Below are positions 2,553 through 4,822 of a stretch of DNA of 5,154 nucleotides, piece after piece. The position numbers were made by a program, and so were the translations under genes. How positions within the stretch are numbered: the first letter of the stretch is position 1; each line of letters starts with the position of its first letter. The notes below the pieces were generated by a model, which worked only from the letters and a program-made list of their open reading frames with translations, was not told the origin of the DNA and did not search any database. The stretch lies in IMG/VR virus record IMGVR_UViG_2606217117_000011; one strand, given 5' to 3'. Source of the DNA: a virus. Lineage: Duplodnaviria > Heunggongvirae > Uroviricota > Caudoviricetes.

Positions 2553-2555
2553 GTA

Positions 2556-2600
2556 GAGTAAGAGGCAGGGCGTAGTCGGACTATTTCCCTGCCTCTCCTC
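2556..2600 (-). ncRNA. Group II intron domain VI (branch-point helix); bulged A at window position 2559, 7 nt from the 3' splice site
   Basis: Minus strand GAGGAGAGGCAGGG-[AAAUAGUCCGACUACG]-CCCUGCCUCUU(A)CUC-UAC: the 5' arm AGGCAGGG pairs with CCCUGCCU, GAGGAG pairs with CUU-CUC leaving one bulged A, and 3 unpaired nt follow to the splice site. Confidence 0.65.
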
Positions 2601-2603
2601 CCC

Positions 2604-2637
2604 GAACCGGACGTGCACCTTTCAGCGCATCCGGCTC
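2604..2637 (-). ncRNA. Group II intron domain V (catalytic hairpin)
   Basis: Minus strand GAGCCGGAUGCGCUGAAAGGUGCACGUCCGGUUC is 34 nt with the AGC triad, a GAAA-type loop and a 2-nt bulge, closely matching the domain V consensus GAGCCGUAUGCGAUGAAAGUCGCACGUACGGUUC. It starts 5 nt after the IEP stop codon. Confidence 0.88.
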
Positions 2638-2642
2638 TCCAT

Positions 2643-4166
2643 TTAAATGCTGGCGAACGCCATTGCCACTTCTGTAAAGCGCGATGTATACGTGTTTCTG
2701 GTCTCCGTCCTCAGATAGGGATTACCTTCGGGTAGCCGCCAGCGGAACAGCTTCTTGCCTTGCCCCACCAACCGGTACAGTATTTCGCCGCTGAGCTTGC
2801 CGTGATTGGTTTTACCAAATAAAACCCACGTTTTGCTCTGACCCGGTTTCGGTGATTTACACCACCACCTCATCAGGGAAGCGATACCTGTACGGTATTT
2901 GCGGGCCAGCCAGTGAGCCAGCTTCCAGAACACGACACGGTCGATATAACTGAAGACTTTGGCCTTAAAATCAACGAACTGATAGAACATGGCCCAGCCT
3001 TTCAGTTTTCGGTTGAGTTGTTCAGCCATATCGACTTTGCTTTCACTGTAGTTGCCTGATAACAGTGCTGTCAGCGATGCGGCGAAGTTTCTGGCTTTCT
3101 CCTGCGGGATCGTTGAGACCACTCGCATCTCGCCATAACGACTGCGTTTGCGAATGATCCTGTGCCCCAGAAAGATAAAGCCGTCATTAACATGGGTGAT
3201 TTTAGTCTTATCCATGTTCAGCCTGAGTTTCAGACTGCCTTCGAGCACACCCCGACACTCCTCCCTGATGGCTTCCGCCTGTGCTTTGGTGCCTTTGACG
3301 ATGAGGACAAAATCATCGGCATAGCGGCAGTACGCCACCGCGGGTTTCCACTGCCAGTTTTCTCTGACCGCCGTACTTCGGCCCCGTTGGATACTGTTAT
3401 TCCAGTACCACCGATCTTTTCTGGCTTTCCCGCTCAGGTAGCGCTCATGCAGGTATTGATCGAACTCATTCAGCATGATGTTCGATAATAGCGGCGATAT
3501 AACACCGCCCTGTGGCACACCTTCACTGGCCGCCCGAAAGAGACCGACATCGATATGTCCCGCCTTGATGGTTTTCCACAGCAGAGTCATGAAACGTGCG
3601 TCACTGATCCTGCGGCGTACAGCCTTCATCAGCAGTCGATGATGTACGGTGTCGAAGTAACTGGACAGGTCGCCTTCAATCACCCAGCGTCCCCGGGTTT
3701 CACCACAGTCTGTGAGCTGTAATTTCACCGTGCGGATCGCGTGGTGGACACTGCGCTCAGGCCGGAAGCCATATGAGAGCGTATGAAAATCACTCTCCCA
3801 TATCGGCTCCATCGCCATCAGCATGGCCCGCTGAACAATACGATCCCGCAACGCGGGGATACCCAGTGGTCGCAGTTTGCCGTTGCTTTTAGGGATGTAA
3901 ACCCGTCTGGCGGGCAAGGGCTGGTAGTGGCCTGAGAGTAATTCATCCCTGAGGATTTGCAGCTCAACAGCCAGTCTGGCCTGTAGCATTGTTTTGTTCA
4001 CGCCATCAACGCCGGGGGTATGGGCCCCCTTTGATGAAAGCGTGATCCGCGCCGCTTCAGCCAGCCATTCTGGTTGTGTTATCAGACGCAGCAGCCGTTG
4101 AATCCGTAGGGACGGATCGGTGACTGCCCATGTGGCAAGCTTGCGTTGCATTTCGCTGATTATCAA
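2643..4166 (-). CDS. Group II intron-encoded protein: reverse transcriptase/maturase (507 aa from TTG at 4166, or 502 aa from the first ATG at 4151)
   Basis: RT motifs are visible in the translation: KLRPLGIPALRDRIVQ (RT1), SYGFRPERSVHHA (RT2), GVPQGGVISPLLSNIMLNEFD (RT4), YCRYADDFVLIV (RT5 with YADD), LNMDKTKITH and GFIFLGHRI (RT6/7), followed by a maturase-like region (RNFAASLTALL...KLKGWAMFY). No Cys/His-rich HNH endonuclease block is seen at the C-terminus. Confidence 0.93.
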   Translation of the reverse strand: MIISEMQRKLATWAVTDPSLRIQRLLRLITQPEWLAEAARITLSSKGAHTPGVDGVNKTMLQARLAVELQILRDELLSGHYQPLPARRVYIPKSNGKLRPLGIPALRDRIVQRAMLMAMEPIWESDFHTLSYGFRPERSVHHAIRTVKLQLTDCGETRGRWVIEGDLSSYFDTVHHRLLMKAVRRRISDARFMTLLWKTIKAGHIDVGLFRAASEGVPQGGVISPLLSNIMLNEFDQYLHERYLSGKARKDRWYWNNSIQRGRSTAVRENWQWKPAVAYCRYADDFVLIVKGTKAQAEAIREECRGVLEGSLKLRLNMDKTKITHVNDGFIFLGHRIIRKRSRYGEMRVVSTIPQEKARNFAASLTALLSGNYSESKVDMAEQLNRKLKGWAMFYQFVDFKAKVFSYIDRVVFWKLAHWLARKYRTGIASLMRWWCKSPKPGQSKTWVLFGKTNHGKLSGEILYRLVGQGKKLFRWRLPEGNPYLRTETRNTYTSRFTEVAMAFASI

Positions 4167-4822
4167 AGGTCTTCACCTCGTTAGGTCAGTTAATTCACGT
4201 CGCAAACACATTCAAACTGCTTCCCTTCGCCATGTAATGGGCTTTCCCCATCGCGGACTACTACGGAAGCTCCGCCAGCCAGCGCGTCATCGGAGCCATG
4301 CCCCCTTAACATCCGTCGCTGACCTTCCCCGGTTTACCTGCCTGGACTCAGGCATACTGAGGAGGCTGCCCGTCGCACTCTTTATCCTTGCTTGCCGCAA
4401 GTTGGCAGAAGTCAGCAACGCAAGCGTGATAGACGCTGCTGCCCCGGTGTTTCGCATACATGTCAAAACACCTTCGACCGGCAGTGCTTACGTATCACTG
4501 CCAGTTCCTCCTGCACGGCCTGTCAGATCACGTAGGCCGTGGTGACGTTTTCAACCCACAGAGGCGGATTAACGGGTTCATGTTCTTCAGCCTTTCAGTA
4601 CTTAACCTTGAGGATCATCTCGGCTTAGTGATCTCGCCTCAATCCCCGTTGTCAGCGGGTTACATCACCCTGCGGGCATGCCGCAGGTCACTGCCGCTCA
4701 GGTTCTCCACCGTCACACCCGGTGGGATTGTTGGGTTTCTCATCGTGAGTTACCGGCTCAATATTCCAGACAGACTCGCGGTTCATTTAAGCATCCATGC
4801 CCGCCCTGAACTCCGGGCACAC
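4167..4822 (-). ncRNA. Group II intron 5' ribozyme portion (domains I-III and the 5' part of domain IV)
   Basis: Lies between the intron 5' end (GUGUG, 4818-4822 on minus) and the IEP start. Contains the EBS1-bearing hairpin CAGUG-AUACGUAAG-CACUG. The plus-strand ORFs in this interval (4120..4545, 4460..4831) have no recognisable protein features. Confidence 0.6.
4487..4492 (-). other. Putative EBS1 (5'-CGUAAG-3') in a hairpin loop of intron domain I
   Basis: Perfect Watson-Crick complement to the last 6 nt of the 5' exon (IBS1 5'-CUUACG-3', window 4823-4828 on minus). About 330 nt from the intron 5' end, flanked by the 5-bp stem CAGUG/CACUG. Confidence 0.55.

Follow-up and report, generated by a model that had tools for sequence, protein, structure and literature searches.

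An intact copy of the catalogued group II intron E.c.I4 in an IS629-family transposase gene within a lambdoid prophage

The minus-strand orfB gene in the window, i.e. the whole 5154-nucleotide stretch of DNA that was analysed, is interrupted by an intact copy of the catalogued group II intron E.c.I4 at its catalogued target, an already known and ordinary arrangement. With a probability of roughly 0.93, we consider that an intact E.c.I4 of bacterial class A retrohomed into an IS629-family transposase gene, at the D-F-T-Y codons where the catalytic rve domain begins. A previous sequence-only reading had proposed a 2270-nt group II intron in this gene with its ends at 4822 and 2553, and all these positions were confirmed to the base (Table 1). 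The hallmarks that it had named, a 5' GUGUG, an intron-encoded protein (IEP) in domain IV, domain V, domain VI with a bulged A and a 3' AC, were each found, and its judgement that this is a known phenomenon and not a new class agrees with the recognition of a named intron at a published homing site.

Table 1. Features of the intron and of its host element (positions in the window)
Feature	Position	Strand	Basis or remark
Group II intron E.c.I4 (bacterial class A)	4822 to 2553	-	2270 nt, 5' GUGUG to CUAC 3'
5' exon, N-terminal portion of orfB up to ...W V A D F T Y + G	4823..5154	-	IS positions 464-795 of 1310
3' exon, rest of orfB (stop codon 2082-2080) and IS right end	2038..2552	-	Ungapped match to intron-less copy L001
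Ribozyme domain I	4328..4817	-	RNAalifold consensus of 29 sequences, many compensatory pairs
Probable EBS1, UGUAUG	4455..4460	-	Terminal loop of covarying hairpin 4472-4446
Second loop, CGUAAG	4487..4492	-	In hairpin 4500-4482; 6/6 complement of IS629 exon end CUUACG
Ribozyme domain II	4274..4327	-	Covariation-supported consensus structure
Ribozyme domain III	4219..4270	-	Covariation-supported consensus structure
Base of domain IV	4156..4189	-	Covarying helices 27 and 28
IEP, reverse transcriptase and maturase (X) domain	2643..4166	-	507 aa from TTG 4166
Ribozyme domain V, catalytic hairpin with GAAA loop	2604..2637	-	Rfam RF00029 and fold
Ribozyme domain VI, bulged branch-point A at 2559	2555..2601	-	Rfam RF00029 and fold

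The intron lies in sense orientation relative to orfB of the IS629-family (IS3 family) element. It opens with GTGTGCCCGG and closes with ...CTCTTACTCTAC; the termini, GUGUG at 4822-4818 and CUAC at 2556-2553, fit the GUGYG/AY rule for group II introns and are both also kept in relatives. While the 5' exon ends with GAT TTT ACT TAC G, the last base being 4823, the 3' exon starts with TC AGC ACA TGG from 2552, and joining of 4823 to 2552 gives the valine codon GTC at a phase-1 junction across which the transposase peptide runs on uninterrupted; both exons are free of stop codons and frameshifts. That excision restores GUC (Val) and a continuous transposase, as had been proposed, is borne out by profile searches with the joined exons, where Pfam rve gives one continuous match across the junction and NCBIfam transpos_IS3 a single match with 286.7 bits (cut-off 160). 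Collinearity of the two exons with an uninterrupted IS629-family orfB had been set beforehand as a test that could refute the intron, and the joined exons align with the intron-less homologue L001 (1310 bp, TGAACCG...CGGTTCA) without any gap and with one mismatch in 847 nt, the 332 nt of the 5' exon being 100% identical.

The right end of the IS reads ...GGGGCGGTTCA with its last base at 2038 (...GGTTCA), the position at which the resemblance between the prophage flank and other genomes also ends. The first 463 nt of the element, with promoter, orfA and frameshift site, fall beyond the window, and it is read here from its position 464. The matching segment in a second genome record (L002) carries the RefSeq label 'IS3-like element IS629 family transposase', and 3062 genomes have intron-less matches to 80% or more of the joined exons. 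The composite IS629::E.c.I4 is inserted in a lambdoid prophage 51 nt upstream of the gene ea8.5. In the complete RefSeq E. coli genomes searched, neither the arrangement of an IS629-family element with E.c.I4 upstream of ea8.5 nor the entire window was found; the best match to the flank that includes some IS sequence (H67) is not the same insertion, as its IS has the opposite orientation and represents a different event.

The identity of the intron is defined by comparison with the published copies. Over its full and equal length, it differs by 4 mismatches in 2270 nt (99.8% nucleotide identity) from positions 4848623-4850892 of NC_009801 (E24377A), which is the copy E.c.I4-2b in Table S3 of Leclercq & Cordaux 2012 (PMC3522654), and the IEP accession WP_001189123.1 is common to both. 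E.c.I4, or S.f.I1, is an intron of E. coli and Shigella of bacterial class A (Dai & Zimmerly 2002, as cited in PMC3522654), with a published target at a fixed position in the IS3-like transposase genes of IS629, IS911, ISEc16 and ISEc31. The copy in the window shares with E.c.I4 this homing position, the length and the IEP accession, and IS629 is an explicitly listed host; nothing substantial differs, the window copy being set in an IS629-family element near ea8.5. In IS629 the insertion site reads ...GAT TTT ACT TAC G|TC and in an IS911-like host (L003, L037) ...GAT GTG ACC TAT A|TC, which is the same codon position.

E.c.I4 is widespread in E. coli. Copies that span 80% or more of the intron are found in 1874 of 5426 complete genomes, about a third. 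Counting any match, the intron appears in 2347 genomes, at a median of 2 places per genome, and 2722 records have a best place with an identity of 99% or more. Such near-identical copies in multiple places suggest recent activity of E.c.I4, and we count them in support of the retrohoming reading. The commonest form, annotated with ltrA in many RefSeq E. coli genomes, is 100% identical to the intron described here, and no inactivating differences from it were seen.

The IEP possesses a YADD motif at 3323-3312 and, as a 507-aa protein, matches Pfam RVT_1 (1.5e-34) and GIIM (1.3e-10) as well as the TIGR04416 model 'group II intron reverse transcriptase/maturase' with 341 bits (cut-off 300). In RefSeq, the identical gene is annotated from ATG 4151, with a product of 502 aa (WP_001189123.1). 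An endonuclease (HNH) domain was not found by Pfam in the 507-aa protein, where RVT_1 and GIIM were the only domains, and class A group II introns have been described to be devoid of the En domain (PMC3552965). The open reading frame is flanked by covarying helices of domain IV on one side and by domain V on the other, and the helices at the base of domain IV enclose a Shine-Dalgarno sequence GAGGUG (4179-4174) together with the start region of the IEP with TTG 4166 and ATG 4151.

With respect to the ribozyme, a covariance-model scan had been suggested for both ends of the intron, with a failure to match them named as refuting, and the outcome differs between the two. The 3' region (2553-2640) is matched by the full model of Rfam RF00029 from 2639 to 2553 at 64.9 bits (gathering score 40, E = 1.4e-11), and the fold of domains V and VI (z = -5.9) shows A2559 as a single bulged base seven nucleotides from the 3' splice site. 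For the 5' region (4167-4822) no Rfam model matched at E <= 10, which is due to the coverage of Rfam; between 4100 and 4900 none of the models for domains I-IV was matched at this threshold and only chance matches (CRISPR-DR8, snoRNA and others) were obtained. The structure of this part is given by comparison, as the consensus of domains I-III from this intron and 28 relatives contains 150 pairs, of which 94 show compensatory double changes, and the paired cells amount to 97.2% versus 35-42% with the partners slid, with none of 500 shuffles as high. The minimum free energy fold of the 5' 656 nt as a single sequence was discarded as structural evidence, as it barely beats shuffled sequences (z = -2.1).

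Exon recognition was assessed with the same 29 introns. In this copy, the UGUAUG loop pairs with the last six exon nucleotides CUUACG at five of six positions, and covariation links it to exon positions -1 to -6 (mean 4.90 of 6 pairs versus 4.39 +/- 0.13 with exons permuted; 0 of 2000 permutations), which suggests that this loop is probably EBS1. The CGUAAG loop may act as EBS2 or as an alternative EBS1, or its complementarity may be due to chance; as EBS1 it was placed behind UGUAUG despite being a perfect complement, as its covariation was not significant when the register was fixed, with 136 of 500 permutations reaching the value, and weak when the register was free, with 31 of 1000. For EBS2, the conserved loop GAGAUCACUAA near 4638-4622 was considered and rejected because it is nearly invariant although the exon varies, and a column-by-position scan, which was too noisy, did not pick out an EBS2.

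Two readings that deny the element its nature as an intact intron have very little to recommend them. That the sequence is a decayed, immobile remnant with no more than a likeness to a group II intron is very improbable, as this copy is of full length with an uninterrupted IEP reading frame and the YADD motif, domains V and VI exceed the Rfam gathering threshold and the sequence equals the commonest, RefSeq-annotated form with intact ltrA, even if E.c.I4 fragments and copies with disrupted reading frames are known, for example from K-12, SMS-3-5 and S. flexneri 2457T. Still more remote is another reverse transcriptase element, such as a retron or a DRT defence reverse transcriptase, placed by chance between two IS fragments: the weak matches to NCBIfam models for retron and Drt reverse transcriptases (48-54 bits) stay far under the cut-offs of 200-390 bits, while the cut-off of TIGR04416 is exceeded, a maturase domain and a domain V/VI ribozyme recognised by Rfam are present and both flanks join as one IS without a gap.

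A different matter is the fate of the transposase. That its expression from this IS copy would depend on splicing is logically right, and the sense orientation, the exact phase-1 valine junction and exons without stop codons or frameshifts are in favour of an intron that splices well enough for IS629::E.c.I4 to remain a working IS with a transposase output gated by splicing. In strain M217, the chromosomal locus yhcG, which is unrelated to the present one, bears a composite that differs by 2 mismatches in 3118 nt, and this is also compatible with transposition as a unit; however, independent homing of the intron into resident IS copies, with four IS types documented, yields the same pattern, and the many intron-less copies could provide transposase in trans. 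Furthermore, RmInt1 in ISRm2011-2, the only comparable endonuclease-less IS intron with a measured value, ligates its exons in vivo at 0.07% (PMC3035460). Judged by this analogy, effective inactivation of the IS copy by the intron is at least as likely as expression through splicing, and a splicing-gated working IS seems unlikely to us; in practice, silencing of this copy is the most probable outcome, as introns of this kind in bacteria may ligate exons very poorly. For practical purposes, an IS copy with an intron should not be counted as a source of active transposase absent evidence of splicing.

The mobile model introns Ll.LtrB of Lactococcus and EcI5 of E. coli pO157 consist of a six-domain ribozyme with an IEP in domain IV, recognise their targets by EBS/IBS pairing and splice as lariats, an overall plan that E.c.I4 shares in its anatomy and would share in recognition and splicing. 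The IEPs of Ll.LtrB and EcI5 bear DNA-binding and endonuclease domains, by which the bottom strand is cut to prime cDNA synthesis, while the E.c.I4 IEP, unlike these, has no endonuclease domain, and the priming route is therefore predicted to differ. RmInt1 of Sinorhizobium meliloti and E.c.I4 are alike in possessing an endonuclease-less reverse transcriptase/maturase, in sense homing into an IS transposase gene and in retroelement behaviour. On the other hand, RmInt1 belongs to class D and resides in an element of another IS family, ISRm2011-2, at another target sequence, and its splicing and mobility have been measured.

Anatomy, identity as E.c.I4, exact restoration of the exon frame, an RNA structure supported by covariation and a conserved homing site are observed directly, and the retrohoming of an intact E.c.I4 would build on them as follows. 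Being sense-oriented, the intron would be transcribed within the IS transcript, as expected from established group II intron biology, and the reverse transcriptase/maturase would be produced from domain IV and then bind to the intron RNA. By the same established biology, ribozyme domains I-VI with branch point A2559 would permit self-excision as a lariat; the second splicing step, if completed, would ligate 4823 to 2552 and create the codon GUC. The lariat-protein particle would then reverse splice into intron-less IS3-family copies recognised by EBS/IBS base pairing, in line with the retrohoming route of group II introns. As the IEP is without an endonuclease domain, a host 3' end would be needed as a primer for cDNA synthesis, most likely at the replication fork.

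The wider clade has its own characteristics. Among GTDB species representatives, 311 relatives of the intron are observed in Gamma- and Alphaproteobacteria and in metagenome-assembled genomes of Nitrospirales, Desulfarculaceae and Planctomycetota, nearly all of which directly follow the D-x-T-Y codons, where IS3-family (rve) transposases have their first catalytic aspartate. In the literature, class A has been described as having 'only three almost identical members' (2013) and by its 'paucity' with two members (2020); the clade appears much larger and of wider distribution than these accounts state.

Relatives with 66-96% IEP identity occupy the same motif across a wide variety of transposase genes, a distribution that argues for retroelement behaviour and that we count in support of retrohoming. 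It is tempting, though somewhat doubtful, to regard this large lineage as a dedicated hyperparasite of DDE transposons that tracks a DNA motif conserved at the protein level, by which it could pass between unrelated ISs, and that might also curb the activity of ISs, the latter because exon ligation would be poor. An intron clade apparently tied to the codons of the DDE catalytic motif could be of interest to students of mobile-element conflicts, while the window itself is of little weight as one further copy of a catalogued retroelement.

With respect to annotation, two halves of an 'IS3 family transposase' pseudogene and an 'ltrA' gene can be recognised as one 3580-bp IS629::E.c.I4 composite. 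Composites of this type constitute long near-identical repeats, which can lead to recombination and fragment assemblies made from short reads; several of the relatives were recovered as contigs exactly as long as the intron.

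Sequence comparison identifies the group II intron splitting orfB of the IS629-family element on the minus strand as E.c.I4 at its published homing site, because it differs at only 4 of 2270 positions from L003, the E.c.I4-2b copy located at NC_009801 4848623-4850893 (Table S3, PMC3522654), shares with it the intron-encoded protein (IEP; WP_001189123.1) and occupies the same codon position, the host of E.c.I4-2b being an IS911-like orfB with the site GAT GTG ACC TAT A/TC TGG. E.c.I4 targets 'various IS3 elements' (Leclercq & Cordaux, PMC3522654) and is listed, like S.f.I1, under class A, characterized by the lack of an endonuclease domain (Toro and Martínez-Abarca, PMC3552965). 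Intron and target are already known, and the sequence-only reading of a group II intron in an IS3-family transposase gene as a known phenomenon is supported. The intron is 100% identical to copies annotated as ltrA in RefSeq records. Of 5426 complete E. coli genomes, 2347 have a match (median two places per genome) and 1874 a copy near full length (at least 80% of the query); in 2722 records, identity at the best place reaches 99% or more. Some E. coli genomes carry an E.c.I4 copy that is itself interrupted, creating nested mobile elements; one copy is split by the IS4-like element IS421 and another by an insert of roughly 1.3 kb that is annotated as IS3 family and AL1L pseudoknot. Several draft genomes contain the intron as a contig of exactly its own length (about 2270-2290 nt; loci L004, L008, L011 and L042), and such assemblies broken at both intron boundaries are a sign of multiple copies in differing IS contexts per genome.

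On the minus strand, the 5' exon ends with CTG TGG GTG GCT GAT TTT ACT TAC G, followed by GTGTGCCCGGAG (boundary 4823/4822), and the intron ends after 2270 nt with CTCTTACTCTAC, followed by the exon TC AGC ACA TGG CGG GGC (boundary 2553/2552). Joining 4823 to 2552 creates the codon GTC (Val) and a frame open to the stop at 2082-2080, confirming the proposed intron extent and restoration of orfB; the unspliced frame stops 21 codons inside the intron (ORF 4758..5039). The predicted colinearity with an uninterrupted orfB also holds, as the exon sequence of 847 nt between the window edge and the end of the IS aligns ungapped and with one mismatch to L001, an intron-less IS629-family copy (NZ_CM185152), with the 40 nt flanking the junction being identical. 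Alignment with this 1310-bp element, which has the ends TGAACCGCCCC...GGGGCGGTTCA, places the IS end at 2038, where similarity of the prophage flank to other genomes also breaks off, and the intron after IS position 795. Of the 5426 complete E. coli genomes, 3062 contain intron-less IS3-family copies that span 80% or more of the joined-exon query. Pfam rve, the DDE transposase catalytic domain, and NCBIfam transpos_IS3 are each matched by the spliced protein in one stretch across the junction. Strain M217 carries the same composite, the upstream half of which bears the RefSeq label 'IS3-like element IS629 family transposase'.

Domains V and VI match the whole Rfam model RF00029 at 2639-2553 (64.9 bits, gathering score 40, E = 1.4e-11). 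Folding of 2645-2553 (z = -5.9 versus shuffles) yields a GAAA-capped domain V hairpin and a long domain VI helix with a single bulged A at 2559, seven nt before the 3' end. In Pfam, the IEP reading frame (4166..2643) matches only RVT_1 (1.5e-34) and GIIM, the domain of group II maturases (1.3e-10), an endonuclease domain not being found; against the NCBI equivalog model TIGR04416 it scores 341 bits (cut-off 300). A retron or Drt reverse transcriptase identity was rejected, with model scores far under the cut-offs. Translation probably starts at TTG 4166 rather than at RefSeq's ATG 4151, as favoured by GAGGUG upstream at 7-nt spacing and the retention of both TTG and GAGGUG in relatives.

The 5' ribozyme part is a different case, as the covariance-model match on 4167-4822 that the sequence-only reading had set as a test is not obtained with Rfam, even at E <= 10 with the stretch scanned alone. 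Covariation among IEP relatives was therefore analysed, sampled from one genome per species (311 matches, 80 kept at 66-100% identity, spread over many genera of proteobacteria and several MAG phyla). Their similarity to the first 660 intron nt starts exactly at GUGYG and extends to the IEP start. For the window and 28 non-redundant relatives, the consensus structure comprises 150 base pairs, of which 94 show compensatory double changes among the 29 sequences; paired cells amount to 97.2% versus 35-42% after sliding the 3' partners by 1-3 columns, and none of 500 column shuffles reached any of five measures. Covariation and controls thus demonstrate that the intron 5' part is a conserved structured RNA, and the missing match reflects that Rfam has no model for this intron class. 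Covarying domain IV helices enclose the Shine-Dalgarno and IEP start region (4149-4179), an arrangement expected of a site at which the IEP binds and regulates its own translation.

Features of the intron 5' part and of the prophage context
Feature	Position	Strand	Remark
Domain I, closed	4817-4328	-	covarying helices
Domain II	4327-4274	-	covarying helices
Domain III	4270-4219	-	covarying helices
Domain IV base, around Shine-Dalgarno and IEP start	4189-4156	-	covarying helices
IS2-family element, end	1-823		rve ORF 21-812
Lambda-type integrase gene, truncated by IS2-family element	1213..824	-	Arm-DNA-binding domain
xis	1409..1191	-	
Small ORF, 55 aa	1616..1449	-	
ea8.5-like gene	1986..1705	-	
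IS629::E.c.I4 composite	from 2038		next after ea8.5

With respect to target recognition, UGUAUG (4460-4455), the terminal loop of the covarying hairpin 4472-4446, is taken as the putative EBS1, because its pairing with exon positions -1 to -6 (mean 4.90 pairs versus 4.39 +/- 0.13 for permuted exons, 29 introns) exceeds all of 2000 permutations. In the window copy, 5 of 6 positions pair with the exon CUUACG. The loop CGUAAG (4492-4487) of the adjacent hairpin 4482-4500 is the perfect complement of this exon, with no fixed-register covariation with the exons across the 29 introns. Both adjacent domain I loops are able to pair with the 5' exon end, and across the clade UGUAUG alone covaries, a pattern that might stem from dual or shifted recognition of targets across the four IS types that host E.c.I4. 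An EBS2 was looked for in the intron and not found.

Among the relatives, the 5' boundary could be placed in 57 distinct insertion sites (39 plus 18 more), and in 55 of these the intron directly follows codons for D-x-(T/S/C)-(Y/F/W) and one nt in a gene for a DDE transposase, mostly of the IS3 family, the motif codons of the window being located at 4823-4840. Of the two exceptions, relative L010 was an artefact of the search pattern, its true site being GAC GTC ACC GAT G/. Joined exons encode an IS3-family-like DDE transposase core across the junction in 17 of 20 relatives tested, with frame disruptions elsewhere in several of them (L010, L043, L054); the joined exons of L027 and L045 show an IS6-like and an IS66-like frame, respectively. 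Class A has been described as three nearly identical members (2013 paper, PMC3552965), and a 2020 paper treats it as too scarce for analysis. Set against two to three published members, the 311 relatives and 55 of 57 sites suggest that the clade is larger and more uniformly tied to the transposase motif than these papers state.

The ribozyme of the intron is complete and its IEP intact, both in sense orientation; the exon frame is exactly restored, the homing site is conserved and identical copies are many. By general group II intron biology, lariat splicing would be aided by the IEP with A2559 as branch point, and the lariat-protein particle would reverse-splice into intron-less targets, with cDNA presumably primed from a host 3' end as the IEP lacks an endonuclease. 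Does splicing then gate the transposase? The intron interrupts orfB immediately 3' of the first catalytic aspartate motif, so that unspliced RNA can yield only a protein without catalytic core, and transposase made in cis logically requires splicing. RmInt1, like E.c.I4 in IS629 an endonuclease-less intron inside an IS (ISRm2011-2), ligates its exons in vivo at 0.07 +/- 0.02%, and according to the authors introns of its type behave as retroelements and may restrain the host IS (PMC3035460). By this analogy, silencing of the IS629-family copy is more likely than gating by splicing.

Window positions 1191-2037 (minus strand) are the early-left segment of a lambdoid prophage, which has lost its integrase through truncation by the IS2-family element; about 130 N-terminal codons remain, the intact homologue comprising 1071 nt. 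The arrangement of the whole window occurs in none of the complete RefSeq E. coli genomes searched, and comparison of the prophage flank with other genomes did not recover the same IS insertion without intron. The window probably comes from a Shigella or from a draft genome. The IS2-family element terminates with TAGGGGCAAATCCA at 823; in the RefSeq records that match the window, the matched part is annotated 'IS3-like element IS2 family transposase'. The insertion point of the IS629-family element lies 51 nt upstream of ea8.5.
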